40,353 nucleotides of DNA, taken from the NCBI GenBank assembly GCA_913045505.1, contig CAJWQN010000002.1, positions 1-40,353 on the forward strand. Reading direction: 5' to 3'. Origin of the DNA: an uncultured Rhodospirillaceae bacterium (lineage in GTDB: Bacteria; Pseudomonadota; Alphaproteobacteria; UBA7887). Of the stretch, positions 10,572-39,231 are shown one piece after another. A model generated the notes under the pieces. That model did no database searches. It saw only the letters and a list, made by a program, of their open reading frames with translations, and was not told the DNA's origin. The position numbers were made by a program, and so were the translations under genes. The stretch's first letter is position 1; each line of letters starts with the position of its first letter.

Positions 10572-10587
10572 TGGCACGGCACTTGCT
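10572..10587 (+). promoter_or_regulatory. Sigma54 promoter of flagellin-2
   Basis: TGGCAC-ggcac-TTGCT is an essentially perfect -24/-12 consensus. It lies 42 nt upstream of the flagellin-2 ATG. Confidence 0.8.
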
Positions 10588-11454: not shown

Positions 11455-12171
11455 ATGACCATGACCGAGACCATTCCCGTCTACGTGGGCTGGGATCCGC
11501 GTCAAGACATCGCCTATCAGGTTTGCCGCCACTCGTTGCTGGCCCGCGCTTCCTGGCCGGTCACGGTGAGCCCCCTGACCCAGGACCATCTGCGCGCGAC
11601 CGGATTTTACTGGCGCGACGAGGATCCGCTGGCCTCGACCGCGTTCACCTACACCCGGTTCCTGGTCCCGACCGTGGCCGGTTTCGAGGACTGGGCGCTG
11701 TTTTGCGACAGCGACTTTCTGTGGCTGGGCGACGTGGCCGAGCTATGGGCACTGCGCGACCCGCGCTACGCCGTGATGTGTGTCCAACACGATTATCGCC
11801 CACCCGAGACTCTCAAGATGGACGGCCGCCTCCAGACCCGTTATCCGCGCAAAAACTGGTCCAGCTTGATGCTCGTCAATTGTGGCCACCCCGCCAACGG
11901 ACCATTGACGGCGGTGATGGCGAACCGGGAAAGCGGCCGCTTCCTGCACCGTTTCAAATGGTTGGACGACAGCTTGATCGGCGCATTACCGGAGAAGTGG
12001 AACTGGCTCGAAGGGTGGTGCGCGAAGCCCCAGGTGGGAACTCCGCGGGCGATCCATTACACCCGCGGCGGCCCCTGGTTCGCGGACTGGCAAGACGTCG
12101 ATTACGCCGAAGACTGGTTCGACGAAGAGCGCCGGTACCGGGACACTCTGCCCGCCACTCACATCGCCTGA
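11455..12171 (+). CDS. GT-A fold DxD glycosyltransferase (GT8-like)
   Basis: ATG lies 1 nt after the flagellin-2 stop. Motifs: STAFTYTRFLVP, FCDSDFLWLGD (DxD), HYTRGGPWF. No terminator separates it from flagellin-2. The family assignment is from motif memory. Confidence 0.65.
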   Translation: MTMTETIPVYVGWDPRQDIAYQVCRHSLLARASWPVTVSPLTQDHLRATGFYWRDEDPLASTAFTYTRFLVPTVAGFEDWALFCDSDFLWLGDVAELWALRDPRYAVMCVQHDYRPPETLKMDGRLQTRYPRKNWSSLMLVNCGHPANGPLTAVMANRESGRFLHRFKWLDDSLIGALPEKWNWLEGWCAKPQVGTPRAIHYTRGGPWFADWQDVDYAEDWFDEERRYRDTLPATHIA

Positions 12172-13904
12172 GCGCCCAAACGGCCGGCCTCGATCGCGGG
12201 CGCCAAGGCGGCCCCGACCCGCGCCAGGACCCGATCCCAATCGCCGGCCTCGGTCTGGCGAAACAGGCGCATCCGCGGATACCAAAGACTGTCGTCCCGG
12301 TCCAATTGCCAGCGCCAATCGGGCACTTTCGGAATCAGGGTCCAGACCTCCTTGCCCAGCGCTCCGGCCAGATGAACCGCGGCGTTCGAGGTCGCGACCA
12401 CAATATCGAGGGCCGCGATCTGGGCGGCGAAACCGTCAAGATCCGCCATCTGATCGATCGCCGAATCGTGGTGAACACGGACCCCGTAACGGTGTTCCAC
12501 TGCCTCCAATTCCTCGGCGCAGTCGCCATATTGGAGATTGACGAACACCGCGTCCGCCTGCATCAGCACCGGATACCACTGGTTCAGCGACGATGACTTG
12601 GCGATGCTGAAGCGGATGTTGTCGACCGTGGCCACGCCCGATTTGCTGCGCCAAGCCACTCCGATTTTCGGTCCCCGACCAAGGGCATCATAACGGGCGC
12701 GAATGCGTGCGGCCTGCTCCGGGTCGGCGGTCAGATAGGCGCGCGGCGCGGCAAAGGATCGGGCCGAGCGGCGCAGCCAGCGGCACAGGCTGCCGGTCGC
12801 CGAGTGCCGGTCGATCATGGGCTCGAGCAGCCGCGAATCCGGGACCGCGGCACGGGCGACCACCTCCGCGTCGGGGAACGAGCGCGCGAACAGCGATGCC
12901 AGGCGCTCATCGCACTCGATCACGAGGCGCGCACCGGCGGCGATCACGTCGTCCAGAACCGAAGCGTACATCACTTCGTCCCCGATCCCCTGCTCGCCCC
13001 AGGCCAACAAAGTCGTTCCGGCCAGCGGCTCGCCCGTCCAGCGGGGATGGGAAAACGGCCTCGGCCAGGCATCCCTGGCCCGCCAGCGCCAGTCGTATTC
13101 GGCGAAGCCGTTCTCGAAATCGCCTCCCAGCAGCAGAGCCAGCCCGAGGTTCTTGTGCGCCTCGGCCAAGTCCGGCCGCAGGGCGATCGCCCGGCGGTGG
13201 CTTTCGATAGCCTCGTCCAGTTGGCCCAGATCCTTGAGTGCCACGCCCAAATTGTCGAACGCCTGGGCGAAATCCGGCCGGCGGGCGATCGCGCGCCGGT
13301 ATTCGACCACGGCCTCGTCCAGGCGGCCGACCGTGACCAGAATATTGCCCATATTGTTGCGGGCGTCGGCGTCGTCCGGATCGATGGCCAGGGCGGCGGC
13401 GTAGTGGCCGACCGCTTGGTCCAGGCGCCCGGTCGCCTTGAGCAGGACGCCCAGGTTGGAGTGGGCGCGCCCATGTTCGGGCGCGATCTCCAATGCGCGG
13501 CGAAACGCCGCCTCGGCTTCGTCCAAAATTCCTTCCGCCTCGAGTGCCAAGCCAAGATTGTTGTGGACGCCGGCCAGGTCCGCGTCCAGGCCCAAGGCGC
13601 GCCGGTATTGGCGGATCGCGTCCCCAAATCGGCCGCGTGCCCGGAACGTCTCGCCCATGGCATTGTGGTAGTCGGGCACCTTGGGATCGATGGCGATCGC
13701 CTCGCCGATCAGGACCGCGGCGCGGTCGGAGTCGCCCCGCTGTTGGGCGAGGACGCCCCGCAAATGAAGCGCATCGGCATTTTTCGGGTTGTCCTCGAGA
13801 ATCTCGCGGTACAAGCGCTCGGCCGTGTCGCCGTCGCCGGCACGATGGGCGCGCAAGGCCACGGCGAGGCGCGGGTCGGGTGCCGACACGTCGGGGCCGC
13901 TCAA
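12159..13904 (-). CDS. TPR-repeat + GT9 (heptosyltransferase)-like glycosyltransferase, paralog A
   Basis: N-terminal TPRs (AERLYREILEDNPKNADALHLRGVLAQQRGD...). The C-terminal domain carries the family motifs WGEQGIGDEVMYASVL, NLQYGDC, FAAQIAALDIVVATSNAAVHLAGALGKEVW, PDWRWQ, SLWYPRMRLFRQ. There is no in-frame ATG before the TPRs, so the start is taken as TTG 13904 overlapping the upstream stop (TTGA); GTG 13889 is the alternative. Its 3' end overlaps the convergent GT-A gene by 13 nt. Confidence 0.8.
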   Translation of the reverse strand: MSGPDVSAPDPRLAVALRAHRAGDGDTAERLYREILEDNPKNADALHLRGVLAQQRGDSDRAAVLIGEAIAIDPKVPDYHNAMGETFRARGRFGDAIRQYRRALGLDADLAGVHNNLGLALEAEGILDEAEAAFRRALEIAPEHGRAHSNLGVLLKATGRLDQAVGHYAAALAIDPDDADARNNMGNILVTVGRLDEAVVEYRRAIARRPDFAQAFDNLGVALKDLGQLDEAIESHRRAIALRPDLAEAHKNLGLALLLGGDFENGFAEYDWRWRARDAWPRPFSHPRWTGEPLAGTTLLAWGEQGIGDEVMYASVLDDVIAAGARLVIECDERLASLFARSFPDAEVVARAAVPDSRLLEPMIDRHSATGSLCRWLRRSARSFAAPRAYLTADPEQAARIRARYDALGRGPKIGVAWRSKSGVATVDNIRFSIAKSSSLNQWYPVLMQADAVFVNLQYGDCAEELEAVEHRYGVRVHHDSAIDQMADLDGFAAQIAALDIVVATSNAAVHLAGALGKEVWTLIPKVPDWRWQLDRDDSLWYPRMRLFRQTEAGDWDRVLARVGAALAPAIEAGRLGAQAM

Positions 13905-15715
13905 CCGGCGCCGACGCGGGCCGCGAGCTGGGTGCCCGCTCGCGCCATGACATCGTCCCAGTCGGCGGCGGTGGTTTGGCGCAGCAGGTCCATGTTCGGA
14001 TACCACAGGCTGTCGCCGCGGTCGCGCTGCCAGCGCCAATCGGGCACCTTGGCGAGCAGGGTCCAAACCTCCTGGCCAAGCGCGCCGGCCATATGGACTG
14101 TGGTGTTGGAGGTCGCGATGACTAGATCCAGGGCGGCGATCTGGGCGGCGAAGTCTTCCAGGCTCGCGATCTGGTCGATGGCGTCGTCATCGATGATGCG
14201 GACGCCGAACATTTGCTCGGCCTCGGCCAGATCAGCCGCGCAGTCACCGTACTGCAGATTGACGAACGTGGCGCCCGATTGGGTCAGGACCGGCGCCCAC
14301 TCGCCCAGGGACGACGACTTGGCGGCCTTGAACAAGACGTTTTCGATATTGGCGCGCCGAGGGGTGCTGCGCCACGCGATCCCGACCTTGACGCCGGGCG
14401 CTTGGCCGTCGTAGCGGGCGCGAACCTCCGCCACCCGCGCGGGATCGGCGGTCAGATAGGCTCGCGGCCCGGCGAACTGGGCCGGCTCGCGACGCAGCCA
14501 GCGACACAGGCCGCCGGCGGCGCATTGCAAATCGATGGTCGAATCCCGAAGACGCTCATCCGGCGGGTCGTCGCGGGTAATGAAGGTCGCGTTCGGGAAC
14601 GAGCGGGCGAACAGGGGTACCAGGCGCCCGTCGCATTCGACCACGACCCGACCGGCGGCGTCGATGACCTCGGGCAGGATCGACGCCAGCATGATCTCGT
14701 CGCCGACCCCTTGCTCGCCCCAGACCAGCAAGGTCTTGCCGGTGAGCGGCGCGCCGTCCCAGACCGGGATATCGAACGTCCGTTGCCAGGTATCCGGCTC
14801 GCGCCAACGCCATTCCCATTCGTCGAATCCGGCCGCGAACTCGCCGATCGAGAGCAAGGATACGCTGAGGTTCTTGTGCGCCTTCACATGGACCGGATCG
14901 GCGGCCACCGCGTGGCGATAAGATGCGATGGCCTGCTCGGCATCACCGCCATCGGCCAAATTGACGCCAAGATTGTAATGGGCGTCGGCGCAATTCGGCT
15001 GGGCGCGAATCGCCCGGCGATAATAAGCGGTCGACTCGGGCACCCGGCCGGTCTCCTTGAGCGCAGCGCCGACGTTGACCATCGCCTGGGCGTTGCCGGG
15101 CTCGATGTCGAGCGCCCGGCGATAATGCCAAAAGGCGTCGTCATGATGACCCTGCATCCACAAGGCGTTGCCCAGATTGCTGTGGGCGTCGGCGTATTTG
15201 GGCGCCACCGCCAGGGCCAAGCGGTAATGGGAGACGGCTTCGTCCAGCTTGCCCGCGCCTTTCAGCAGAATTCCCAGATTGTTGTGGCTCTTGGCATGAT
15301 CGGGCCGGCTGGTCAGCGCCCGGCGATAGTGGGTTTCCGCCTCGGCGATCTCTCCCGTGGCGGCCAAGGCCAGGCCCAGATTGTTGTGAGCGTCGGCGTG
15401 ATCGGGATCCAGATCGACCGCCCGGCGGCCATGGTTGATGGCATCGCCGAGCCCTCCTTGGGCGCGGTGCGCCTCGGCGATATTGCTGTGAAAATCCGCG
15501 ATCCGGTCGTTGATCCCGATCGCCCGGCCGATCAGGCGCACGGCCGTCGCGTGATCGCCGCCTTGATGGGCGGCGACTCCGCTCAAGTGCAGGGCGTCCG
15601 AATGATTCGGATCGTCGTCGAGAATTTCCCGGTACAGCCGTTCGGCTTCCCGAAGGTCGCCGGCCTGATGGCTGGCCAAGGCGGCCGAGAGCTTGGTTTC
15701 GGTGGTGGGCATCAT
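13901..15715 (-). CDS. TPR-repeat + GT9-like glycosyltransferase, paralog B
   Basis: ATG-ATG start at 15715. REAERLYREILDDDPNHSDALHLSGVAAHQGGD plus further TPRs, then WGEQGVGDEIMLASIL, NLQYGDC, IATSNTTVHMAGALGQEVW, PDWRWQ, SLWYPNM. Confidence 0.85.
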   Translation of the reverse strand: MMPTTETKLSAALASHQAGDLREAERLYREILDDDPNHSDALHLSGVAAHQGGDHATAVRLIGRAIGINDRIADFHSNIAEAHRAQGGLGDAINHGRRAVDLDPDHADAHNNLGLALAATGEIAEAETHYRRALTSRPDHAKSHNNLGILLKGAGKLDEAVSHYRLALAVAPKYADAHSNLGNALWMQGHHDDAFWHYRRALDIEPGNAQAMVNVGAALKETGRVPESTAYYRRAIRAQPNCADAHYNLGVNLADGGDAEQAIASYRHAVAADPVHVKAHKNLSVSLLSIGEFAAGFDEWEWRWREPDTWQRTFDIPVWDGAPLTGKTLLVWGEQGVGDEIMLASILPEVIDAAGRVVVECDGRLVPLFARSFPNATFITRDDPPDERLRDSTIDLQCAAGGLCRWLRREPAQFAGPRAYLTADPARVAEVRARYDGQAPGVKVGIAWRSTPRRANIENVLFKAAKSSSLGEWAPVLTQSGATFVNLQYGDCAADLAEAEQMFGVRIIDDDAIDQIASLEDFAAQIAALDLVIATSNTTVHMAGALGQEVWTLLAKVPDWRWQRDRGDSLWYPNMDLLRQTTAADWDDVMARAGTQLAARVGAG

Positions 15716-15775
15716 CCAGCCCCGTCTCGAACGGTCGTGGCCATTATGGACCCGGCGGTCAGCACCGCAAAGTCG

Positions 15776-17281
15776 TCATCCGCGATGGTCGGCCAGGGCC
15801 GCCGCGACCCGCGCCAGAAGCCCGGTCCAGTCGCCGGCATCGGCCTGGCGCATCAGGCGCGCGTTGGGATACCACAGGCTGCCCGTGGCCCCGCTCCGCC
15901 AACGCCAATCGGCAAGCTGGGGCAGAAGCACCCAGAGCGCGCCGCCCAGCGCGCCAGCCAGATGGGCGGTGGTGTTGGCGGTGGTGATCACCAGATCGAG
16001 CGCCGCGATCTGGGCCGCGAAATCATCGAGGCTGGTCATCTGATCGACCGCCGGATCGCGATGCACTCTGACGCCGAGCTGCTCCTCGATCGCGTCCAGA
16101 TCCGCGTCGCAGTCGCCATATTGGAGATTGACGAAGTGGATGCCGGCCTCGGTCAGGATCGGTGCCCAGGCATCGAGGCTGGAGGATTTGGCGGCACCAA
16201 AACGGCTGTCGCCGGCGGTGCTCCGCCATGAAATTCCGACCTTGAGGCCGCCGCCGAGACCGTCCAGAAAGCCACGGCACTCCTCGATTCGTGCCTCGTC
16301 GGCGCGGAGATAGCCGGGAATCGACGCAAAAGAATCGGAGTCCGGCCGCAGCCAACGGCCCAGGCCGCCGATCGGGCATTGAAAATCGATATCGGGTGCC
16401 ATCGTCAGGGGGGCCGGCGGGTCCTGCCTGGCGACGACCCGCACCCCCGGGAAGGACCGTTCAAACAGTGGCACCAGGCGCGGCGCGCATTCGATGATGC
16501 AGTGCTCCGCCGCCGCGGCGACTTCCCCAATCAGGGCGGCGAACATGATTTCCTCGCCGACCGCCTGCTCGCCCCAGACCAGAACCCGCCGCCCGGCCAG
16601 CGGCTCGCCCCGCCATTCGGGTTGGGGAAAGCCGCGCGCCGCGGTGGCCAATCCGGGTCTGCGGAATCGCCATTCGTATTCCGCCCAGCCGTCGGCGAAT
16701 TCACCGAGTCGGAGCAGCGTGATCGCCATATGGAAATGGGCCTCGGCATGGTCGGGACTGGCGTCCATGCAGCGCCGGTAGGCCGCGATCGCCGACACCG
16801 GATCGCCCCCGGCGTTCAACGCCCGGGCGAGGCGATAGAGGGTTTCGCCGTCGCCGGGGCGAAGCGCCAGGGCGTCCTGAAAGCACGCGACGGCATCCTC
16901 CGGGCGGCCCGATTCGGTCAAGGCCACGCCCAGATTGACATGGGCGTTGGCAAAGTCCCGGTTCAACGCCAGCGCGCGCCGGTAATGGTCGATCGCCTGC
17001 TCGGCGGCCCCCGTTTGCCAGAACAGGACGCCGAGATCGTGATGGACGGCGGCATTGTCGGCATCCAGGGCCAGTGACCGCTGGTAGCAGTCCATGGCGG
17101 CGGTGACCTCCCCTTGGCCTGCCAAGGCGATGCCCAGCAAATGATGCACATCGGCCCGATCGGGCGCCTTCGCCAACACCTCGCAATACGCCGCCACCGC
17201 CCGATCCAATTGGCCGCGCTTGTGATGGCGCAAGCCCAGCGCCAAGAGTCGGTCCCCGTCAGGCGTCGGCGCGGCACCCAT
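15776..17281 (-). CDS. TPR-repeat + GT9-like glycosyltransferase, paralog C
   Basis: ATG 17281 lies 3 nt after the upstream stop (TGA-GTG-ATG). There are about 6 TPRs, then WGEQAVGEEIMFAALI, NLQYGDC, ITTANTTAHLAGALGGALW, ADWRWR, SLWYPNARLMRQ. Confidence 0.85.
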   Translation of the reverse strand: MGAAPTPDGDRLLALGLRHHKRGQLDRAVAAYCEVLAKAPDRADVHHLLGIALAGQGEVTAAMDCYQRSLALDADNAAVHHDLGVLFWQTGAAEQAIDHYRRALALNRDFANAHVNLGVALTESGRPEDAVACFQDALALRPGDGETLYRLARALNAGGDPVSAIAAYRRCMDASPDHAEAHFHMAITLLRLGEFADGWAEYEWRFRRPGLATAARGFPQPEWRGEPLAGRRVLVWGEQAVGEEIMFAALIGEVAAAAEHCIIECAPRLVPLFERSFPGVRVVARQDPPAPLTMAPDIDFQCPIGGLGRWLRPDSDSFASIPGYLRADEARIEECRGFLDGLGGGLKVGISWRSTAGDSRFGAAKSSSLDAWAPILTEAGIHFVNLQYGDCDADLDAIEEQLGVRVHRDPAVDQMTSLDDFAAQIAALDLVITTANTTAHLAGALGGALWVLLPQLADWRWRSGATGSLWYPNARLMRQADAGDWTGLLARVAAALADHRG

Positions 17282-17284
17282 CAC

Positions 17285-19174
17285 TCAGCTCCGCGACGGG
17301 GCCACGAACCGGCCCAAGTCCTCGGCAACCCGCTTGAGCAGCCCGGCCCAGTCGCCCGGCCGGGACTGGCGCATCAGCCGCGCGTTCGGATACCACAGAC
17401 TGTCGGCGCGGCCCATCTGCCAACGCCAGTCCGGGACATAAGGCAGAAGGACCCAGACCGGGCGCCCGAGCGCGCCGGCGAGATGCGCGGTGGTGTTCGA
17501 GGTCGTGATGACCAGGTCCAGCCCCGCCAGTTGGGCGGCGAAATCGTCCAAGTTCAGGGCTTGATCGACCTTCGGGTCGCGATAGAGCGCAAACCCCAGA
17601 GCCTGCTCGGCCGCCGCGATTTCATCGGCGCAATCGCCGTGCTGCAGATTGGCGAAGGCGACCCCGGGCTGGCGCAGTACCTCGGCCCACGTCTCGAGGC
17701 TCGAGGTCTTGGACGCGCTGAACGGAGCGTTGGCACCGATGCTGCGCCAGGCGATGCCGACCTTGACCCCGTCCCGCCACCGATCCATCCGCTCTCGGCA
17801 GGCGGCGGCCCGTTCCGGATCGGCGGCCAAATAAGGCCGGGGGGGCGCGAAGGATTCCGAATCGCGCCGAAGCCAGCGGCACAAATCGCCGACGGCGCAG
17901 TGGAAGTCGATTTCGGGCGCGGCGGTTCGGGCGAGGGCCTCGATTCCGGGATGGGCGCGTTCTAGCAACGGCACCAGGCGCGGGTCGCATTGCACGAGGC
18001 AGCGCTCCGCCGCGCCGGCGACCTCCGGGATCAGGGACGCGAACATCACCTCTTCGCCAACGCCCTGCTCGCCCCAGATCAGGATCGTCCGGCCGGCCAA
18101 CGGCTCACCGCTCCAGGCCGGCGCCGGGAAATCTCGGGCCTGGTAGCGACCCTCTCCGGTGCGCCAACGCCAGGCGTAGCGGTCGAAGCCGTCGCCGAAG
18201 CGGCCGGCGAGGAGCATGAGCATGGCCAGGTTGAGCTGCAGGTCGGGCGAATCGGGTGCCAGGTCCGCCGCCACCTGGCCGCGCGTCAGGGCCTCGTCCA
18301 GGCGCCCCTGCTCGGCCAGGGCGATGGCCAGATTGCCGTGGGCGCGGGCGAGATCGGGCTTTAGCGTGATCGCCGATTTGAGGTGAGAGACGGCATCGTC
18401 GACGCGACCCAAATGGCGGGCCGCGGCACCGTAAGCATTGTGAGCCGGCGCCGATTTCGGGGCGAGTGTCATGGCCTGAACGGCATGTGCGGCGGCCTTT
18501 CGAAAACTCGCCACACGCACCAGCGCTTCCGACAAGTTCACATGGGCATCGACAAGATCCGGGTTGATGGCCAGGGCACGGCGGAACGCCGGGACCGCGT
18601 TACCGAGTTCGCCTTTCATGACCAGCGCCGCGCCCAGATTGTTGTGGGCTTCGGCATAGTCCTCGACCGCCGCCAGCGCCTGGCGGTAGTGATCGATCGC
18701 GGCATCGACGTCGCCCCGGGCGGCGAGCACGGCGCCCAGATTGTTGTGAGCCTCGGCGAAATCTGGCCGTGCCGCGACCGCGCGCCGGTAATGGTCGATC
18801 GCCGCATCCGCACGGTTCTGTCCGGCCAACAGAACGCCGTAATTGTTGTGGCTTTCGCCATGATCGGGCGCCAATTCGAGCGCCCGAAGGTAATGGGTTT
18901 CCGCCGCATCGGCGCGCCCGATCGCGGCCAGGGCGACCGCCAGGCGATTGTGGTAATCGGGTACCGCGTCGTCGGCGTCCAGCGCCCGCGACAGATAGGC
19001 GACCGCCTCCCCCGGTCGGCCCCGCTGAAGCAGAACCACGCCCTGGAGATGGGCGGCCTGGGCATTGTTCGGCTCTTGAGCCAGTACCTCGCCGTAGAAA
19101 CGCTCGGCCTCGTCCAGTTCGCCGCGCTGGTGGCAGCGCAGGCCCAATTCGATCTTGAGTTGCGCCGCTCTCAA
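17285..19174 (-). CDS. TPR-repeat + GT9-like glycosyltransferase, paralog D
   Basis: No in-frame ATG precedes the TPR head (LKIELGLRCHQRGELDEAERFY). The start is taken as TTG 19174, overlapping the stop of paralog E (TTGA) and preceded by GGAGAA. C-terminal motifs: WGEQGVGEEVMFASLI, NLQHGDC, ITTSNTTAHLAGALGRPVW, PDWRWQ. Confidence 0.8.
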   Translation of the reverse strand: MRAAQLKIELGLRCHQRGELDEAERFYGEVLAQEPNNAQAAHLQGVVLLQRGRPGEAVAYLSRALDADDAVPDYHNRLAVALAAIGRADAAETHYLRALELAPDHGESHNNYGVLLAGQNRADAAIDHYRRAVAARPDFAEAHNNLGAVLAARGDVDAAIDHYRQALAAVEDYAEAHNNLGAALVMKGELGNAVPAFRRALAINPDLVDAHVNLSEALVRVASFRKAAAHAVQAMTLAPKSAPAHNAYGAAARHLGRVDDAVSHLKSAITLKPDLARAHGNLAIALAEQGRLDEALTRGQVAADLAPDSPDLQLNLAMLMLLAGRFGDGFDRYAWRWRTGEGRYQARDFPAPAWSGEPLAGRTILIWGEQGVGEEVMFASLIPEVAGAAERCLVQCDPRLVPLLERAHPGIEALARTAAPEIDFHCAVGDLCRWLRRDSESFAPPRPYLAADPERAAACRERMDRWRDGVKVGIAWRSIGANAPFSASKTSSLETWAEVLRQPGVAFANLQHGDCADEIAAAEQALGFALYRDPKVDQALNLDDFAAQLAGLDLVITTSNTTAHLAGALGRPVWVLLPYVPDWRWQMGRADSLWYPNARLMRQSRPGDWAGLLKRVAEDLGRFVAPSRS

Positions 19175-23084: not shown

Positions 23085-23117
23085 CGCGGTCGCTCGTGGC
23101 CTAGGGGGCCGTGGCGG

Positions 23118-23774: not shown

Positions 23775-23896
23775 CGCTTGTGAACCCTCGTTTCGATCGC
23801 GGCGCCGAAGTGCGATATCACACTAGTCCCACGACCCTTAAGATAGTCTTTACCAGCGCCGGCGCAAAACGGTGGCTGATTCTCGGGTCGCGGTGA

Positions 23897-26236: not shown

Positions 26237-26272
26237 GGAATCATTTAGGGTTTCGATGGCAATCTTGCGGGC

Positions 26273-26881
26273 ATGCGGATGACCGAACCGGAGCGCGCCC
26301 AGCGGATGGTGGCGCTGACGCAAGCGCTGAACGCGGACGCGCCGGCGCCCCGGCGCTTGCATCTGGGCTGCGGCACGCGCCATATTCCCGGATTCTTTCA
26401 CATCGATCTGGTCCCTCATTCCCATGTCGACTGGCTGGGCTCGGTCGAGCGTCTTGACCCGATTGCCGACGACAGCGTCGATCTCATCTACGCCAGCCAC
26501 GTGCTCGAGCATTTCGGCCGCTACCAGGTGTTCGACGTGGTCAGCGAATGGTACCGTGTTCTCAGGCCCGGCGGCGTGCTCCGGGTCGCGGTGCCCGATT
26601 TCGAGGCGGCCGCGGGTTTTTATCTGGCCGACGGCGATATTCGTCATGTCCTGGGGCTGATCATGGGTGGCCAAACAGCCCCTCACGACTATCACTACGC
26701 GATTTTCGACGAGACCAATTTGGGTGAGCTGCTGGCCGATGTCGGCTTCGAGAGGATTCGGCGTTACGATTGGCGCCAAACCGAACATGCCTGGCTCGAC
26801 GATTTCAGCCAGGCCTATCTGCCCCATATGGACAAGGACAACGGCACCCTGGTCAGCCTCAACGTCGAAGCGGTGAAATGA
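26273..26881 (+). CDS. Small SAM-dependent methyltransferase (type 2, paralog 1)
   Basis: The 202-aa product has LHLGCG (motif I) and SVDLIYASHVLEHFGRYQVFDVVSEWYRVLRPGGVLRVAVPD (Methyltransf_11-like). It is about two-thirds identical to the gene at 31144..31740. Confidence 0.75.
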   Translation: MRMTEPERAQRMVALTQALNADAPAPRRLHLGCGTRHIPGFFHIDLVPHSHVDWLGSVERLDPIADDSVDLIYASHVLEHFGRYQVFDVVSEWYRVLRPGGVLRVAVPDFEAAAGFYLADGDIRHVLGLIMGGQTAPHDYHYAIFDETNLGELLADVGFERIRRYDWRQTEHAWLDDFSQAYLPHMDKDNGTLVSLNVEAVK

Positions 26882-26906
26882 CCGGCGGGCGGCAAGGAGC
26901 CTGAGA

Positions 26907-29216
26907 GTGGTCGGAGCCGCGCCGCGGCTGGCCGAGGCCATCGCCCATCACCGGGCCGGTCGCGCGGCCGAGGCCGATCGATTGTATCGGGACGTGCTCG
27001 CCGCCGAGCCCGAGCAGGTCGATGCCCTCAACCTGCTCGGCGTGCTCGCCCATCAGCGTGGCGATCACGCCGGCGCGGCGGCGTTGATCGAGCGGGCGAT
27101 CGAGCTCCGCCCCGGGGTCGCCGATTTTCACAACAATCTGGGCGAAGCGCTGCGCGGCCTGGGCCGGATCGACGATGCCGCTCGCCAGTACCGCCGGGCG
27201 CTGGACTGTGATCCCGACCATGCCCACGCCCATGGCAATTTGGGCCTGATCGCGCTCGAGCAGAATCGTCACGAGGAGGCTACGGCCGCCCTCGCGCGGG
27301 CGGTGGCGCTCAAGCCGGACTCGGCGCCGTTTCAAATCAATCTGGGCCGGGCGCTGGCCAAGACCGGGCGCATCGATGACGCACTGGCCAGCTTTTCGAA
27401 GGCCGATGCCCCCTATTGGACCGCCCTGACCCTGCATCGCCAGGGCATGCTCGACGGCGCGATCGATCATTACCGCATCGCGCTCGACCGCGATCCGGAC
27501 CGCGCCGAGGCACGGTCCAATCTGGCGGCGGCCCTGGTCGAGAGGGGCGAGCCCGAGGCGGCGCTGCCCCTGTATCAGGCGGCGTTGGCCCAAGGTGAGG
27601 GCACGGCGGCGATTTACAACAATCTCGCCTTGGCCCTTCACAGACTCGGCCGTCTCGGCGATGCCGACGATCATTACCAGGCCGCCCTGGCGCGCGCGCC
27701 CTCACATCCGGACACCCTCAACAATCTGGGTGATCTTCGGGTCGAACAGGGCCGCGTGACCGAGGCCTTGGCGCTTTACGAGCGCGCGCTCGCGATCGAC
27801 CCCGATCACGACCACGCTTATGTCAATCTGGTCGCGCGCGCCAACTTGATTTGCGATTGGACGCGGCTGGCGAAGTACTTGCCCGGACTGGCCGCCCGAC
27901 TGGAACGAATCGCCGCCACCGGCGCCAATGCCGACAGCCTGATCCCGCTCACCTTCACCTTGCCGTACGTCTCCAGCGAGAACACGCACATCCGCGCGGT
28001 CGCGACCTTGGTCGGCGAGAGCTTGGCGCGAAGCGTGCCGCGACTGGCGGCGCGGGGCGCCATCGGCCGGACCCGCCGGCTCAAGATCGGCTACCTGTCG
28101 CCTGATTTCGGCGACCATCCGATCAGCCATGTCACCCGACCAATTTACGGGCTCCACGATCGGGACCGGTTCGAGGTGCTGTGTTATTCGCTGCTCGATC
28201 GGGCCGGCGCGGGCGGGCCGCATCTCGACTCCATTCGCTCCGATTGCGACCGGTTCGTCGACCTCGCCAAGTTGTCCGACCGTGACGCGGCCGAGCGCAT
28301 AGCCGCCGACCGGATCGATATCCTGATCGACCTGTCCGGATACATGCGCCACAACCGGGCCCGCATCCTGGCCATGAAGCCGGCGCCGCTCCAGGCCTAT
28401 TGGCAGGGCCACACCGGCACTCTGGGCGCCCCCTACATCGACTATGTGATCGGCGACGAGATCATGATGCCGCCCGAGGACGCTGAGTTCTTTACCGAAA
28501 AAGTGGTTCGCCTGCCGGATACCTTCTCCAGCGCCGACCGGCCGCCGATCGCGGAGGTCACGCAACGACGCTTGGATTTCGGCCTGCCCGAAACCGGCAT
28601 CGTCCTCTGCGCGTTCAACAATCCGCTCAAGATCGAGCCCGAAACCTTCGACGCCTGGATGCGGATTCTCGCCGCCGCTCCGCAAGCGGTCTTGTGGCTC
28701 AGCGAATCCAAGGATCCGGCGGTCCGGGACAATCTGGGCGCGGCGGCACGGGCCCGCGGCATCGACCCGGCGCGATTGGTGTTCGCATCGCGGATCCCAG
28801 ACAAGGCGGAGCACCTTGCCCGCCATCGCCTCGCCGACCTGTTTCTGGATACATTCAAGTTCAACGCCTCGACCACGGCGCTGGATGCGTTATGGACCGG
28901 GCTGCCGATCGTCGCCCGGCGTGGCAACAACGCCTATTCCCGGATCACCGCCTCCTATCTGAGCGCCGTTGGCATGGCCGAACTGGTGTGCCCGACCACC
29001 GACGCCTATGAGCGACTGGCTCTGGATTTGATTGCCGACTCGGGTGCGCGCGCCGCGGTCAAGGCCAAGCTACAGGCAAATCTGCCGACCAAGCCGTTGT
29101 TCGATTCAGAACGATTCGTTCGACATCTGGAAGCGGCCTATCAGATGATGTGGGACCGTCATGCAACCGGCGCGCGACCCGGCGCGATCGACGTCACCCC
29201 TTTGGATGCCGGGTGA
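26907..29216 (+). CDS. TPR-repeat + GT41 (OGT/SPINDLY-type) glycosyltransferase, paralog J
   Basis: GTG 26907 lies 7 nt after AAGGAG. TPRs are followed by IGYLSPDFGDHPISHV, ILIDLSGYM, QAYWQGHTGTLGAPYIDYVIGD, RLADLFLDTFKFNASTTALDALWTGLPIV and PLFDSERFVRHLEAAYQMMW. Confidence 0.85.
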   Translation: MVGAAPRLAEAIAHHRAGRAAEADRLYRDVLAAEPEQVDALNLLGVLAHQRGDHAGAAALIERAIELRPGVADFHNNLGEALRGLGRIDDAARQYRRALDCDPDHAHAHGNLGLIALEQNRHEEATAALARAVALKPDSAPFQINLGRALAKTGRIDDALASFSKADAPYWTALTLHRQGMLDGAIDHYRIALDRDPDRAEARSNLAAALVERGEPEAALPLYQAALAQGEGTAAIYNNLALALHRLGRLGDADDHYQAALARAPSHPDTLNNLGDLRVEQGRVTEALALYERALAIDPDHDHAYVNLVARANLICDWTRLAKYLPGLAARLERIAATGANADSLIPLTFTLPYVSSENTHIRAVATLVGESLARSVPRLAARGAIGRTRRLKIGYLSPDFGDHPISHVTRPIYGLHDRDRFEVLCYSLLDRAGAGGPHLDSIRSDCDRFVDLAKLSDRDAAERIAADRIDILIDLSGYMRHNRARILAMKPAPLQAYWQGHTGTLGAPYIDYVIGDEIMMPPEDAEFFTEKVVRLPDTFSSADRPPIAEVTQRRLDFGLPETGIVLCAFNNPLKIEPETFDAWMRILAAAPQAVLWLSESKDPAVRDNLGAAARARGIDPARLVFASRIPDKAEHLARHRLADLFLDTFKFNASTTALDALWTGLPIVARRGNNAYSRITASYLSAVGMAELVCPTTDAYERLALDLIADSGARAAVKAKLQANLPTKPLFDSERFVRHLEAAYQMMWDRHATGARPGAIDVTPLDAG

Positions 29217-29228
29217 GGAGCCGGCGCC

Positions 29229-31163
29229 ATGTCCTCCGATCCACGACTCGCCGCCGGACTGAAGGCCCACAAGGCCGGCCGTTTCGGAGAAGCCCAAGGT
29301 CACTATCAGGCGCTGCTCGATGAACGCCCCGACCATGCCGATGCCCTGCACCTGCTCGGGCTGACCTGCCACCAGAGCGGCGATCGGGCTCGGGCCGTCG
29401 AGCTGATTTCACGCGCCATCGTGATCAACGACGGGGCGGCCGATTACCACAACAGCCTCGGCGCGGTGCATGAGGCCCTGGGCTCGCTGGCGGACGCGGC
29501 CGAATGCTATCGGCGGGCGATCGTCCGCGATGCCGGATTCGCCAAGGCCCATCACAACCTGGGGGCCGTGTTGCAGAAGTCCGGCGATGCCGAGGCCGCC
29601 ATGTCCTGTTTTCAAACCGCCCTCTCGCTGCGGCCCGATATGGCCGGATCGATGGATGCCCTGGGCACCACACTTCTGGTGCTCGGCCGGCTCGAGGAAG
29701 CGGTGGCTTGTTTCCGTTCGGCGCTGGACATGCAGCCCGACTGTCACCGGGCCTATTTCAACCTTCTGGCACGGGCAAGCCAGCTTTGCGATTGGTCGAC
29801 CCAGGCCGCGCTGTTGCCGGAGTTCGAACGCCGTCTGAGCAGCTATTTGCGGGCCGGCGACGACCCCCGGCAATTGATGCCGCTGGCCTTCGCGCTGCCC
29901 TATTTCCGCGACGACGCGGTGCTGCACAAGACCTTGCTGGCCGGTCTCGGCAGCCATTTCGAGGCCGAGGCGGCGGGCCGGGCCCATGGTCATCCGCCCG
30001 CGCCGCATTCGGGGCGGATTCGCCTGGGCTATGTCTCGGCCAATTTCGGCGATCACCCGATTGCCCAGGTCACCCGGCCGGTGCTGGCGCTTCACGACCG
30101 CTCGGAATTCGAGGTCGCCGCCTACGCTCTGGCCGCCACCGATGCCCGGTCACCGATCCGCCGGGCCGTCGATCGCTTCGTCGATCTGTCGGCGGCTTCG
30201 ACCGAGGACGCGGCCCGCCAAATCCGCGCCGATGGCATCGAGATTCTGGTCGATCTCGGCGGTTACATGCGCCATGCCCGTCCGGCGCTGTTCGCCTTGC
30301 GCCCGGCCCCGGTGCAGGTCTACTGGCTCGGCCACGGCGGCGGGCTCGGCGCGCCCTATATCGACTACGTGATCGGCGATCCGATCCTGACCCCGCCCTC
30401 GGAGGATGATCGTTTCGTCGAATGCATCGCCCGTCTCCCCGACAGCTTCTCGACCGCCGAACGCGCCCTGATCGCCGAGGAGTCGCCGAGCCGGGCCGAT
30501 CAGGCCCTGCCCGAGGCCGCGATCGTGTTCGCGGCGTTCAACAATCCGCTCAAGATCGAGCCAGCGGTCTTCGACGCCTGGATGCGCATCCTGGATTCGG
30601 TGCCCGACAGCGTGCTGTGGCTGAGCGAACCCAAATTCCCCCCGGTCTGGACAAAACTTCGGGCCGCCGCCGCCGCCCGGGGCATCGATCCCGACCGCCT
30701 GATCGGCGCCAAACGAGTCCCCGACAAAGCCGTCCATCTGGCGCGCCATCGCCTGGCCGACCTGTTTCTGGATACGTTCAAGTTCAACGCCTCGACCACC
30801 GCGCTCGATTCGCTGTGGGCGGGGCTGCCGGTGGTGACCTGCCGGGGCCGGGGATTCACCGGGCGGATCGGTGCCAGCTATCTGCGCGCATTGGGCATGG
30901 CAGATCTGATCGCCGAGAGCGAGGACGCCTATGTGCGGCTGGCGATCGACCTCGCCGGCCGGCCCGCCGCCCGGGCGGCGCTCCGCGCCCGCCTTGCCGT
31001 CGCCCGCGACACCGCGCCGTTGTTCGATACCACGCGATTCACCCGGCATCTGGAATGGGCCTATCGGCACATGGTGGAATGTTGGGGGGCGGGGGCGCGG
31101 CATGCCTCGTTCGACGTTCCCGCGGCCTTCGAGGAGGAATCCCATGCTATTGTCGGCTCATGA
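29229..31163 (+). CDS. TPR-repeat + GT41 (OGT/SPINDLY-type) glycosyltransferase, paralog K
   Basis: ATG 29229 lies 8 nt after GAGGAG. It has fewer TPRs (644 aa). LGYVSANFGDHPIAQV, ILVDLGGYM, QVYWLGHGGGLGAPYIDYVIGD, RLADLFLDTFKFNASTTALDSLWAGLPVVT, PLFDTTRFTRHLEWAYRHM. Confidence 0.85.
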   Translation: MSSDPRLAAGLKAHKAGRFGEAQGHYQALLDERPDHADALHLLGLTCHQSGDRARAVELISRAIVINDGAADYHNSLGAVHEALGSLADAAECYRRAIVRDAGFAKAHHNLGAVLQKSGDAEAAMSCFQTALSLRPDMAGSMDALGTTLLVLGRLEEAVACFRSALDMQPDCHRAYFNLLARASQLCDWSTQAALLPEFERRLSSYLRAGDDPRQLMPLAFALPYFRDDAVLHKTLLAGLGSHFEAEAAGRAHGHPPAPHSGRIRLGYVSANFGDHPIAQVTRPVLALHDRSEFEVAAYALAATDARSPIRRAVDRFVDLSAASTEDAARQIRADGIEILVDLGGYMRHARPALFALRPAPVQVYWLGHGGGLGAPYIDYVIGDPILTPPSEDDRFVECIARLPDSFSTAERALIAEESPSRADQALPEAAIVFAAFNNPLKIEPAVFDAWMRILDSVPDSVLWLSEPKFPPVWTKLRAAAAARGIDPDRLIGAKRVPDKAVHLARHRLADLFLDTFKFNASTTALDSLWAGLPVVTCRGRGFTGRIGASYLRALGMADLIAESEDAYVRLAIDLAGRPAARAALRARLAVARDTAPLFDTTRFTRHLEWAYRHMVECWGAGARHASFDVPAAFEEESHAIVGS

Positions 31164-31740
31164 TACCCACTGGATGGGAAAGGCCTTGCACGTGGCGACC
31201 GCGGCGCCGGTGAAACTCTATCTCGGTTGTGGCCGGCGCCGGATTCCCGGATTCATCCATGTCGATCCGGACCCGCTGTCTCATGTCGAACATATCCAGC
31301 CGATCGATCGGCTGGATATGTTCGACGACGACAGCGTCGATCTGATCTATGCCAGCCATGTGCTCGAACAGTTCGGCCGCTACCGAATCTTCGACGTGGT
31401 CAGCGAGTGGTTCCGAGTGCTGCGCCCGGGTGGCGTGCTGCGCCTGGCCGGGCCGGACTTTTCCAAGGCAGCGCGCTACTACCTCGACCACGGCGACATT
31501 CGCGACGTGATGGGCCTGGTGGTCGGCGGCCAGAAATATCCGGGCGATCTGCACCTGGCCTTGTTCGACGAGACCAATCTCGGCGAGCTGCTGCTCGATG
31601 TCGGTTTCTGTTCGGTCGATCGCTATGACTGGCGACGGACCGAGCATGCCGAGATCGACGATCTGAGCCAGGCTTATTTGCCGCACATGGATAAGAAGCA
31701 CGGCACGCTGGTCAGCCTCAACGTCGAGGCGATCAAGTGA
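31144..31740 (+). CDS. Small SAM-dependent methyltransferase (type 2, paralog 2)
   Basis: ATG 31144 overlaps the end of paralog K by 20 nt; ATG 31174 is the alternative. LYLGCG, SVDLIYASHVLEQFGRYRIFDVVSEWFRVLRPGGVLRLAGPD and the C-terminus AYLPHMDKKHGTLVSLNVEAIK parallel the 26273 gene. Confidence 0.75.
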   Translation: MLLSAHDTHWMGKALHVATAAPVKLYLGCGRRRIPGFIHVDPDPLSHVEHIQPIDRLDMFDDDSVDLIYASHVLEQFGRYRIFDVVSEWFRVLRPGGVLRLAGPDFSKAARYYLDHGDIRDVMGLVVGGQKYPGDLHLALFDETNLGELLLDVGFCSVDRYDWRRTEHAEIDDLSQAYLPHMDKKHGTLVSLNVEAIK

Positions 31741-33440
31741 CCGAGGGCGCGCCCGATCCGCCCCCCGACCTCGAGCAGGCGCTCGAACATCACCGCGCCG
31801 GCCGCCTCGATGAGGCCGATGCGCTTTACCGCGCGTTCCGCGACATTCATCCCGATCATGCCGATGCGCTGCACCTTCATGGCCTGCTCGCTCACCAGCG
31901 CGGCGCGCATGATGAGGCGGCGGCCCGGATACGGCGCGCCATCGCCGGATGCCCGAACATCCCAATCTACCATGTCAGCCTCGGTGATGCCTGTCGCGCC
32001 GCGGGCGAAGTGGCGGCGGCGACCGACGCCTACGAGCGTGCGCTGGAATTGGCACCCGGCCTGGTCGAGGCGGTCAATGGCCTCGGTCTCATCGCGGTCG
32101 CCACCGGCGCGCTCGAGTCCGCCGCCGATCGGTTTCGCGAGGCCGCCAGGCTCGCGCCGGAGCGTGGCAAGCTTCATTTCAATCTCGCCAACGCCCTGCT
32201 TCATATCGGTGCCTATGAAGGCGCCGACGACGCTTTCGTCGCCGCTCTCGATCGGCAACCGGATGACGCCGACGCGCTGGCCGGGCGGGGCACGATCCGC
32301 CGTGATCTCGGCGACACGCCGGGCGCCATCTCTTTCTATCGACGCGCGCTCGACGCCCGGCCGGGAGATGGCCGTCTGCACAGCAATCTCGCGGTGGCGA
32401 TTCAGCAGACCGGCGACCTCGACGGCGCGCTCGAACATTTCGATACCGCCATCGCCTTGGCCCCCGATCTTGCCGAGGCGTACAAGAATCGGGCCATGCT
32501 GCTGTTGTTGCGGGGCGATTTCGAAGCCGGGTTCGATGGCTATGAGTGGCGCTGGCGCCACACCGACCCGATCAACACCAAGCGGCCGTTCCCGCAACCG
32601 GCCTGGGACGGCGGCCCGCTCGACGGCAAGACCCTGTTGGCCTGGGGCGAGCAGGGAATTGGCGACGAAATCATGTTTTCCTCCCTGGTGCCTGAGCTGG
32701 AGGCCGCCGCGGCAGGCTGCGTTCTGGAATGCGATCGGCGGCTCGAGCCCCTGTTCCGCCGCTCCTTTCCGCGCGTGACAGTGGTGGCGCGGTACGATCC
32801 CCCGAGCGCGGCAGCTCTGGCGTCCGACATCGACCTCCAATGCGCGACCGGCGACCTCTGCCGCTGGCGGCGCCGGCATCGCCGCGATTTCGCCTCCCCC
32901 GCCGCCTATCTGGTCGCCGACACCGAACGCGTCGCAGCCTTGCGCGCCCGTTACGATCGGCTCGGCGCCGGCCTCAAGGTGGGTATCGCGTGGCGCAGCA
33001 AGACCCCGGTCTGGGGCGCCATCAAGACCGCGAAGCTGGATCAGTGGGAGACGGTCCTGTCGCAGCCGGGGGCCGTGTTCGTCAATCTCCAGTACGGCGA
33101 CTGCGCGGCCGAACTGGCGCGCGCCGAGGCGTGCCATGGGGTCGTGGTACACCACGACGACACCGTCAACCAGATGGCCGATCTCGACGCCTTCGCGGCC
33201 CAGGTCGCGGCCATGGATCTGGTCGTGACCACGTCGAACACCACCGCCCATATGGCCGGTGCGTTGGGGGTGCCGTCACTGGTGTTGCTGGCCCATGTCC
33301 CGGATTGGCGCTGGCAGGCGACGGGCGATGCCGCGCTCTGGTATCCGCGTGTCCGCCTGATTCGTCAACCGCGTCCCGGATGCTGGGCGGAGGCCCTGGA
33401 GGTGGCCGGAGACGCCGTGGCGGCCCGGATCGCGGGATGA
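31737..33440 (+). CDS. TPR-repeat + GT9-like glycosyltransferase, paralog M (plus strand)
   Basis: GTG 31737 overlaps the methyltransferase stop (GTGA). LDEADALYRAFRDIHPDHADALHLHGLLAHQRG plus TPRs, then WGEQGIGDEIMFSSLV, NLQYGDC, VTTSNTTAHMAGALGVPSL, PDWRWQ, ALWYPRVRLIRQ. Confidence 0.85.
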   Translation: MTEGAPDPPPDLEQALEHHRAGRLDEADALYRAFRDIHPDHADALHLHGLLAHQRGAHDEAAARIRRAIAGCPNIPIYHVSLGDACRAAGEVAAATDAYERALELAPGLVEAVNGLGLIAVATGALESAADRFREAARLAPERGKLHFNLANALLHIGAYEGADDAFVAALDRQPDDADALAGRGTIRRDLGDTPGAISFYRRALDARPGDGRLHSNLAVAIQQTGDLDGALEHFDTAIALAPDLAEAYKNRAMLLLLRGDFEAGFDGYEWRWRHTDPINTKRPFPQPAWDGGPLDGKTLLAWGEQGIGDEIMFSSLVPELEAAAAGCVLECDRRLEPLFRRSFPRVTVVARYDPPSAAALASDIDLQCATGDLCRWRRRHRRDFASPAAYLVADTERVAALRARYDRLGAGLKVGIAWRSKTPVWGAIKTAKLDQWETVLSQPGAVFVNLQYGDCAAELARAEACHGVVVHHDDTVNQMADLDAFAAQVAAMDLVVTTSNTTAHMAGALGVPSLVLLAHVPDWRWQATGDAALWYPRVRLIRQPRPGCWAEALEVAGDAVAARIAG

Positions 33441-37671: not shown

Positions 37672-37796
37672 GCACTCCTCACTCGACCAATTTATTGCCT
37701 TACCGGCTTTCAAACAGTTTGCTCTATCCGATGCCAGATCCCTCTGTCCCGGCCAGCGAAATGCCGGTCGGGTGGGACGGCCAAGCGAGCAAGTCC

Positions 37797-39221: not shown

Positions 39222-39231
39222 GTCGGGCCCC

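Follow-up and report, generated by a model that had tools for sequence, protein, structure and literature searches.

A flagellin-linked block of TPR-fused glycosyltransferases and methyltransferases in an uncultured marine Rhodospirillaceae bacterium

What would a bacterium do with ten glycosyltransferases, all fused to tetratricopeptide repeats (TPRs), encoded directly behind a flagellin gene? The question is raised by a 40,353-nucleotide stretch of DNA from an uncultured Rhodospirillaceae bacterium (contig CAJWQN010000002.1; the whole of this stretch is called the window here), which is part of the 82-kb scaffold_185 of the TARA Oceans marine metagenome. In it, 14 genes (G1 to G14) follow the gene of flagellin-2; they encode seven TPR proteins with an FlmG-like glycosyltransferase (GT) domain of the GT9 fold and GT-B type, three TPR proteins with a GT41 domain, one GT8-fold enzyme and three methyltransferases. 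We consider it reasonably probable that the products of this island act together in the cytoplasm to modify translated flagellin ahead of its export. A reading made earlier from the letters of the same DNA (the original prediction) had proposed soluble protein glycosyl- and methyltransferases with FlmG-like fusions, most likely acting on flagellin, and the comparative evidence favors that proposal. How acceptors are chosen and complex flagellin glycans assembled is known for few, single-enzyme systems (FlmG, Maf); the locus suggests that the FlmG-type solution, TPRs joined to a GT-B domain, reaches beyond the Caulobacterales, usually as arrays or multi-module fusions.

The island and its flagellar setting

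The open reading frame (ORF) listing, codon-position GC and translation agree on 14 genes that follow one another from 11455 to 33440 with nothing unrelated interspersed, and the public gene call on scaffold_185 equals our own models for G3 to G14. The uninterrupted layout originally described is borne out, including the single nucleotide said to separate it from flagellin-2: the stop codon of flagellin-2 occupies 11451-11453 and G1 (11455..12171, plus strand, 238 aa) starts at 11455 by our model and at 11461 by the public one (236 aa), so that the gap is 1 or 7 nt. Converging on G1 is a minus-strand operon, running from 23774 down to 12159, that is opened by the methyltransferase gene G8 (23118..23774, 218 aa) and continues with six TPR + FlmG-like/GT9-fold genes, namely G7 (20670..23084, 804 aa, with a long TPR array of ~500 aa), G6 (19171..20673, 500 aa), G5 (17285..19174, 629 aa), G4 (15776..17284, 501-502 aa), G3 (13901..15715, 604 aa) and G2 (12159..13889, 576 aa from an inferred GTG start). 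Divergent from it, a plus-strand operon (23897-33440) carries the GT41 gene G9 (23897..26236, 779 aa), the small methyltransferase gene G10 (26273..26881, 202 aa), two further GT41 genes, G11 (26907..29216, 769 aa) and G12 (29229..31163, 644 aa), a second small methyltransferase gene, G13 (31144..31740, 198 aa, also in the gene call), and a seventh TPR + GT9-fold gene, G14 (31737..33440, 567 aa). Neither membrane segments nor N-terminal signal-like stretches are present in any of the 14 proteins, which are thus expected to act in the cytoplasm.

Upstream of the island, Pfam identifies FlgH, a DksA-like protein, FlgI, FlgK, FlgL, flagellin-1, FlbT and FlaF, after which comes flagellin-2. The two candidate acceptors, flagellin-1 (8783..9607, plus strand; Flagellin_N 6.8e-22, Flagellin_C 2.6e-13) and flagellin-2 (10629..11453, plus strand; from its ORF and translation), are each 274 aa long and 72% identical, and flagellin-1 has 41 Ser/Thr. 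Between them, on the same strand, lie flbT (9670-10077, FlbT 6.6e-41) and flaF (10055-10393, FlaF 1.8e-29), regulators of flagellin translation and secretion. The site that had been called a perfect sigma54 promoter (TGGCACGGCACTTGC, 10572-10586, plus strand) lies 43 nt 5′ of the flagellin-2 start codon; it is a match to the consensus TGGCAC-N5-TTGC, which recurs exactly nowhere else in the window. As had also been claimed, no terminator-like site was found between flagellin-2 and G1, and we infer that G1 belongs to one transcription unit with flagellin-2, behind this putative promoter. The 3′ ends of G1 and G2, on opposite strands, overlap by 13 nt (12159-12171), again with no terminator-like site between them, so the flagellin-2/G1 transcript and that of the minus-strand operon would collide.

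A search for the CtrA-box-like pattern TTAA-N7-TTAAC with at most one mismatch returned only two places in the window: a perfect site 5′ of flgI (2399-2414), and a site with one mismatch (TTAAGATAGTCTTTAC, 23838-23853) in the middle of the putative 122-bp divergent promoter region of the island (23775..23896). Three matches were observed against 0.31 expected, and none of 100 shuffles reached three; the second site may hint at how the island is regulated.

No gene for nucleotide-sugar biosynthesis, pse, leg and neu types included, was found among the scanned ORFs of the window (40 of the scaffold's 82 kb), in agreement with what had been reported from the sequence, and the donor pathway may be encoded elsewhere. 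We also considered whether composition marks the block as horizontally transferred and found no support for the idea: its GC content is 0.66-0.69 against 0.58-0.65 in the flanks, third-position GC is similar, and the higher value arises because TPR proteins are rich in Ala.

The enzymes and their families

G2 to G7 and G14 each consist of a TPR region (185-498 aa; Pfam TPR matches in G2 and G3, for instance) and one common C-terminal domain of ~300 aa (294-322 aa), recognized by alignment. The original prediction called this domain GT9-like, which stands at the level of the modeled fold and fails the curated family thresholds. PF01075 gave 13.3-13.6 bits (E 0.04-0.05) or nothing against a cut-off of 22, the NCBIfam heptosyltransferase I model TIGR02193 gave E 0.06, below threshold, and a single-sequence search of the PDB returned no chain at E up to 10. 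An AlphaFold2 model of the G7 domain, built from 35 sequences (the seven paralogues and 28 distant homologues), reached a pLDDT of 93.1 and a pTM of 0.92, and its top Foldseek matches were all GT9 enzymes: WaaF (1psw, 1.7e-8), a Veillonella structure (3tov), WaaC (2h1h) and TibC (4rap), with E from 1.7e-8 to 1e-5 and TM 0.5-0.58. A profile search aligned the N-terminal GxGD and the C-terminal H-x-AGALG with the hallmark motifs of WaaF, the GxGD Asp falling on that of WaaF VGD, at E = 1 only. In the same E = 1 alignment, the Asp with which GT9 enzymes bind the sugar of ADP-heptose is replaced by Ser or Asn, so an ADP-heptose donor is not implied. The likeness to GT9 (WaaC, WaaF) and to the TibC/AAH enzymes, of which TibC glycosylates protein in the cytoplasm, is thus one of structure, and the island domain differs from them in being fused to TPRs, in scoring below the Pfam and NCBIfam thresholds and in this Asp.

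The closest likeness in architecture is to FlmG, a protein of 596 aa whose TPR region (1-313) binds flagellins and whose GT-B domain spans 309-596 (PMC7591256), and which the literature presents as a new class limited to Caulobacterales (10.1101/2023.12.03.569772). Both have N-terminal TPRs and a C-terminal GT-B domain of ~290 aa, are soluble and cytoplasmic, and come from alphaproteobacteria that have flbT/flaF and whose flagellins are short. Four overlapping supplement primers (FlmG_547_N, NK-76, NK-77 and FlmG_int_N) yield the start of the FlmG GT domain, FQIPGVRWSGQDLRG(K/N), and the window paralogues read FDIPVWDGAPLTGK, FPAPAWSGEPLAGR, FTQPRWQGEDLAGR and similar at this place (FSHPRWTGEPLAGT in G2). 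The resulting signature, F..P..W.G..L.G(K/R), opens the GT domain in both, and the stretch between its Trp and the C-terminus measures 289 aa in FlmG, compared with 276-293 aa in the island family. Written as F..P.{1,3}W.G..L.G[KRNT], it had 46 matches in 4.1 M six-frame residues of fetched DNA, all 46 in family members and all followed by xEQGxGD, and none in 20.6 M shuffled residues; when cut down to W.G..L.G[KRNT], the pattern occurs at 1.3e-6 per shuffled residue; the comparison covers 16 primer-derived residues, and the pattern was written after both sequences had been seen. Searching with a chimeric query of the primer-derived FlmG peptides returned no candidate. These similarities suggest that the seven GT9-fold proteins are probably of the FlmG class and that FlmG is a single-module member of their family. 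The FlmG systems of C. crescentus and B. subvibrioides differ in having one enzyme with a CMP-pseudaminic or CMP-legionaminic acid donor (PMC7591256; 10.1101/2022.03.25.485807), whereas the island has seven diverged paralogues beside flagellin, together with GT41, GT8-fold and methyltransferase genes, and no pse or leg genes among the window ORFs. The claim that no characterized system has this composition was in part upheld: our literature searches returned none, and the island is less unprecedented than supposed, as its seven GT9-fold proteins are probably of the FlmG class and arrays and fusions of this sort occur widely.

Among the seven paralogues the GT domains are 51-60% identical and the TPR regions 34-58%. 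Recent duplication or gene conversion was rejected, as the genes are 60-82% identical at the DNA level and share no long tract that is near-identical. Orthology, judged from a neighbor-joining tree, links single paralogues to genes of other genomes (designated here by locus number): G7 groups with a 791-aa gene of L088 and an 804-aa gene of L082, all three adjoining a Methyltransf_23-type gene; G3 with the array genes adjoining the G1 homologue in L088 and L004; and G14 with the L082 gene behind the second small methyltransferase. G8 likewise has orthologues in L088 and L082. Given this old divergence and the one-to-one orthologues, the paralogues probably have a job each, whether a site, a chain step or a donor, and are not redundant. 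The donor-side motifs (NLQYGDC, SNxxVH-AGALG) are near-identical in all seven and the TPRs the most diverged part, which tentatively points to similar chemistry in differing acceptor contexts. In the same tree, six array modules of L049, a Marinimicrobia bin, pair one-to-one with six of L057, and either horizontal transfer of a whole array or a binning error would account for this; the T2SSE ATPases of L049 and L057 are 73% identical, L057 and L070 being Rhodospirillaceae/Proteobacteria bins.

In G4 and G5 Glu replaces the Asp of GxGD, which raises the idea that many of the paralogues are catalytically dead and serve as flagellin-binding chaperones or regulators, after the manner of the GmaR anti-repressor. 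The position of the genes beside the translational regulators flbT and flaF would suit such a role, as would the ability of the FlmG TPR domain alone to bind flagellin (PMC7591256), and GmaR is itself bifunctional. We nevertheless hold this to be highly improbable: the GT domains of the seven paralogues and the 28 distant homologues align with 19 columns free of any variation and many others almost free of it, the motifs SNxxVH-AGALG and NLQYGDC among them; Asp to Glu is a conservative change; and orthologues of single paralogues have been kept across genomes.

The three GT41 genes of the original prediction were fully confirmed by PF13844 (cut-off 25 bits), which matches G9 at 1.5e-93 (314 bits), G11 at 3.1e-83 (280) and G12 at 4.9e-82 (276); with several TPR Pfam families within residues ~1-330, they are unambiguous TPR + GT41 proteins by sequence. 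G9 matched human OGT at 2.8e-164 and XcOGT at 3.5e-73, and SPINDLY was matched as well. In the alignment of G9 with human OGT, DFGDH stands opposite DFGNH and NNALKIE opposite NQLYKID. The equivalents of His498 and Lys842, the catalytic and UDP-binding residues of human OGT, are kept. Ser stands in for His920, and the enzyme may therefore use another donor than OGT does. SPINDLY, for comparison, uses GDP-fucose. The order of a TPR array and a GT41 catalytic domain is that of human OGT, XcOGT, SPINDLY and the Ogt of Synechococcus, and, as in XcOGT, no further domain intervenes. The Synechococcus TPR + GT41 Ogt is required for the glycosylation of a pilin, which like flagellin is a filament subunit (PMC9306852). 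The island departs from the known GT41 systems in having three paralogues interleaved with small methyltransferases in a flagellar locus and in the His920-to-Ser replacement. No GT41 flagellin transferase turned up in our literature searches, and the combination of FlmG-like with OGT-like GT41 enzymes, which the searched literature does not tie to flagellin, appears to be new.

G1 was expected to be a GT8-like GT-A enzyme. Here too the fold held and the family model did not, PF01501 giving 16.4 bits (E 0.007) against a cut-off of 24.3. Its AlphaFold2 model (pLDDT 88.9) found the GT8 domain of WbbM first (6u4b, 3.6e-11), then GlyE (5gvv), LgtC (1ss9) and UGGT (5h18), with LARGE1 and glycogenin also among the matches; the model thus makes G1 a soluble GT-A enzyme of the GT8 fold. 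The predicted DxD is present as D85-S-D87, invariant in 32 homologues and aligned with the DxD of WbbM, and 3,731 homologues at 62-83% identity were found. As for the three methyltransferases, G10 (2.6e-10) and G13 (5.5e-7) match Methyltransf_11, as anticipated, and are 65% identical to each other, and G8, a class I S-adenosylmethionine (SAM) methyltransferase, reaches Methyltransf_23 at 1e-5 and 25.8 bits, just below the cut-off of 27. The checks proposed with the original prediction thus found GT41 domains by Pfam and GT9 at the level of fold. None of the 14 proteins has a Pfam match to MAF_flag10 (DUF115).

Gene content, folds, conserved motifs of catalytic type, the lack of membrane segments and a recurring linkage to flagellin are observed; flagellin as the acceptor, a division of labor among the paralogues, their donors and the substrates of the methyltransferases we infer. 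If the TPR arrays work like those of FlmG and of Maf-1, which also binds flagellin through a TPR domain, they would hold both flagellins in the cytoplasm as soon as these are made. The FlmG-like and GT41 domains would transfer sugars from soluble nucleotide sugars to flagellin Ser/Thr, G1, which has no TPRs and would be made together with flagellin-2, and the three SAM methyltransferases might extend or methylate the attached glycans, and the modified flagellin would leave through flagellar type III export. Methylated flagellin glycans are known (PMC9290775). Like the Maf-type and other flagellin islands of Pseudomonas, Campylobacter, Aeromonas and Shewanella (Maf-1), the locus has transferase genes beside flagellin genes; it differs from them in lacking MAF_flag10 and sugar-biosynthesis genes and in having ten TPR-fused GT-B enzymes in place of one or two transferases. 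A second analogy is offered by the streptococcal serine-rich-repeat adhesins, on which GtfA/B and then GlyD, GlyE and others build an O-glycan stepwise in the cytoplasm before export. GlyE, a GT8 extender of protein O-glycans, resembles G1 in fold; the initiating enzymes, acceptor and export route are different, and the likeness is one of analogy, not of system homology.

Relatives of the island and the choice of acceptor

The C-terminal domain belongs to a very large and little-studied family: a word-indexed search gave more than 2,271 matches, 483 stretches were confirmed in GTDB species representatives, and 45,077 cluster representatives were found at E <=1e-3 (26,065 at <=1e-30), with members also in Poribacteria and a Methanoperedens bin. 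The top-scoring cluster representatives are polypeptides of ~960-3,140 aa with 2-6 copies of the GT9-fold domain, so multi-module fusion is common in the family. We then counted neighbors in the 79 best genome loci of the GTDB species-representative scan, all of them metagenome bins and none from Caulobacterales. At least two domain copies are present in 32, GT41 genes in seven, G8-like methyltransferases in seven and a G1 homologue, often embedded in the TPR-GT array, in 13. Flagellin, FlbT or FlaF is an immediate or near-immediate neighbor of a TPR-GT gene in seven of the 79 (L004, L019, L021, L063, L067, L072 and L076), which span Alphaproteobacteria, Planctomycetota, Acidobacteriota and Thermodesulfovibrionales; by a rough estimate from a few flagellin genes per ~4,000 genes, not a computed control, ~0.2 of the 79 would be expected by chance.

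Two relatives reproduce the arrangement of the window. L004 has FlgK-FlgL-flagellin-FlbT-FlaF-G1 converging on at least three TPR-GT genes. L088 runs from FlgI through FlgK, FlgL, two flagellins, FlbT, FlaF and a third flagellin to G1, which converges on four TPR-GT genes and a 217-aa Methyltransf_23-type gene, with no GT41 block. The divergent core is found in L082, on a 4.85-Mb contig, where genes for 804 aa and 218 aa face a series of GT41, methyltransferase, GT41, methyltransferase and TPR-GT genes. The survey of neighborhoods thus answers the question put with the original prediction, whether such islands sit with flagellar or with lipopolysaccharide (LPS) and capsule genes: the orthologous islands L004 and L088 are flagellar.

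The link is closer still in cultured Azospirillum. A tblastn search of PLSDB located the domain in 146 replicons, 47 of them from Azospirillum (up to 12 places per replicon), 30 from Ralstonia and 13 from Burkholderia. On p1 of A. brasilense Sp7, a GT4-like gene, NeuB, a cytidylyltransferase and acyl-modification genes are followed by a 624-aa flagellin, FlbT and a 1,994-aa ORF (NZ_CP012915.1, reverse strand; L172 18492-24476) that holds three in-frame TPR-GT modules and overlaps the flbT stop by 4 nt, with further modules on the opposite strand. In A. ramasamyi the PGAP annotation has pseI, flagellin (619-624 aa across both species), FlbT and then a 1,409-aa coding sequence of two modules (L173 16513-20742), again with a 4-nt overlap with the flbT stop; downstream come a 1,086-aa two-module protein and a TPR-methyltransferase fusion of a kind common to related arrays and Azospirillum. 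PGAP labels these fusions merely as 'tetratricopeptide repeat protein'. The coupling to flbT ties the modules to flagellin, and their fusion is Rosetta-stone evidence that several modules act together. NeuB or pseI and a cytidylyltransferase adjoin the modules. The polar flagellin of Sp7 is a ~100-kDa glycoprotein with an O-linked repeating glycan of Rha, Fuc, Gal and GlcNAc, as reviewed in PMC3958885; the predicted mass of the flagellin is ~65 kDa. We found no literature naming its transferase, for which the flbT-coupled multi-module gene is an obvious candidate. By analogy, the Azospirillum fusions and repeating glycan suggest that the ten TPR enzymes of the window could be successive steps of one chain rather than parallel sites, and Sp7, with its heavily glycosylated polar flagellin, offers a tractable model. 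The domain has a single copy in Ralstonia solanacearum, at a distance of 3.6 kb from fliFGHIJK; the plasmid copy of Burkholderia thailandensis sits among insertion sequence elements and is uninformative.

The sugar ratio of the Azospirillum flagellin glycan equals that of the O-antigen (PMC3958885), and this bears on the reading that the island makes a non-protein glycan (LPS core, O-antigen, capsule or exopolysaccharide) with the TPRs as a scaffold for a multi-enzyme complex only. The GT9 and GT8 folds are those of classic LPS-core enzymes (WaaC, WaaF, LgtC, WbbM), some G1 homologues are named 'lipopolysaccharide biosynthesis glycosyltransferase', and a GT4 gene lies behind the island. However, we saw no gene for a flippase, polymerase, ABC exporter, polyprenyl-phosphate transferase or chain-length factor in the island or its syntenic relatives, none of the 14 proteins is membrane-bound by prediction, the substrates of GT41 enzymes are proteins and the neighbors are flagellar rather than genes of envelope biogenesis, which leaves this reading improbable.

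Several results weigh against flagellin as the target, in addition to the sub-threshold family scores and altered residues given above. The reading rests on the genes of an uncultured organism, two flagellins of 274 aa make a small target for at least ten enzymes of the initiating type, and the lack of nucleotide-sugar genes among the window ORFs counts on the donor side. In 72 of the 79 loci the fetched flanks hold no flagellar gene, so that, in correction of the earlier reading, specificity for flagellin does not extend to the whole family. The same holds from the side of G1: in 80 G1-anchored metagenome loci a GT9-fold domain adjoins it in 36 and flagellin in only two (L090 and L157), other common neighbors being cupin, cytidylyltransferase and TylF-type sugar methyltransferase genes. 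Moreover, five loci (L085-L087, L171 and P0154) place an array at a housekeeping site, in the order cytidine deaminase, array, GATase, RluB, RsmD, MutL and PGI, and in four others (L049, L057, L060 and L070) an ordered array of at least seven modules with an embedded G1 homologue lies directly 3′ of a T2SSE (GspE/PilB-type) ATPase gene. These contexts show that the family has other settings, and perhaps other targets.

At the housekeeping site, related genomes carry one, three or four TPR-GT genes followed by the G1 homologue, a variation in module copy number. In L057 (1-9443) and L070 a TPR-Methyltransf_11 fusion, a plain TPR protein and an FkbM methyltransferase precede the array, and in L073 a T2SSE gene is found near a single family copy. 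The T2SSE-linked arrays have no flagellin in their flanks, which suggests a second, non-flagellar class of target. L170 (1-10699) combines a G1 homologue with two TPR + GT41 genes interleaved with DAHP_synth_1 (KDO8P-synthase-like), and also has CTP_transf_3, NTP_transf_3 and GT2 genes, a set that ties GT41-type TPR enzymes to an ulosonic-acid-like pathway. L083 is a singleton among biotin genes.

Such settings are what one would look for if the island were a general system of cytoplasmic protein glycosylation, whose main acceptors would be adhesins, pilus or secretion substrates, hook-associated or cytoplasmic proteins, the adjacency to flagellin being a matter of co-regulation or chance insertion. 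The absence of flagellar neighbors from 72 of the 79 family loci and 78 of the 80 G1 loci, the T2SSE-linked arrays, the variable arrays at the housekeeping site and the sheer size and spread of the family all speak for it, as do the action of the cyanobacterial Ogt on pilin (PMC9306852) and the modification of autotransporters by TibC-type GT9-fold enzymes. For this island we think it unlikely, though a serious contender. G1 appears to share the transcription unit of flagellin-2, the order of flagellin, G1 and array is preserved in L004 and L088, adjacency to flagellin, FlbT or FlaF recurs in four phyla, and in Azospirillum the modules are translationally coupled to flbT. Furthermore, of all enzymes that share this architecture and signature only FlmG has been studied; it is a flagellin transferase, and its gene is not described as lying near flagellin genes; non-adjacency elsewhere is therefore weak evidence against flagellin. 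We accordingly retain the flagellin reading for the window, L004, L088 and Azospirillum, where, by the genomic mark of a flagellin-glycosylation island, glycosyltransferase genes adjoin flagellin and are kept in relatives.

Islands for flagellin glycosylation have been known before, and so have flagellin transferases guided by TPRs and bacterial homologues of OGT. Searches of the literature for TPR-glycosyltransferase arrays and for GT41 or heptosyltransferase-like enzymes at flagellin loci returned no such system; what we did not find described is the union of seven FlmG-like, three GT41, one GT8-fold and three methyltransferase genes in one flagellin-linked block, and the occurrence, in many phyla, of this type of TPR-GT module in ordered arrays and multi-module fusions. 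It is possible, and we offer this only tentatively, that arrays or fusions of TPR-GT-B modules with a GT8-fold partner and methyltransferases constitute a widespread, unrecognized and modular form of cytoplasmic protein glycosylation, of which FlmG would be the minimal form. Diverged modules, up to seven genes or six per polypeptide, would then work as an assembly line that writes complex or repetitive, partly methylated O-glycans on flagellin and, elsewhere, on substrates of the type II/IV secretion type. Should every module determine one site or one sugar, the arrays would lend themselves to the programmable glycosylation of proteins as a ready-made toolbox; more speculatively, they could diversify the surface of the flagellum as a defense against phages and grazers.

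Genes flanking the island

Two genes behind G14 may or may not belong to the system. A DUF123 gene (33437..33997, plus strand, 186 aa; Pfam DUF123 1.2e-19, also in the gene call) overlaps the stop of G14 and so appears translationally coupled to the island; behind the G14 orthologue of L082 there is no DUF123 gene, its place being taken by a Methyltransf_21 gene. The GT4 glycosyltransferase gene (34045..35226, minus strand, 393 aa; Glycos_transf_1 1.5e-22, Glyco_transf_4 3.4e-20) is a possible extra member. Further right, GC falls to ~0.58-0.59 from ~37 kb, and the region 36400-40353 encodes a 481-aa protein with no Pfam match and a 352-aa ORF, by which content and composition the glycosylation block is over by ~36.4 kb. 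At the other end of the window, the DksA-family gene (1380-1799, minus strand), with DksA_N at 2.2e-29 and a zinc finger, lies between flgH and flgI.

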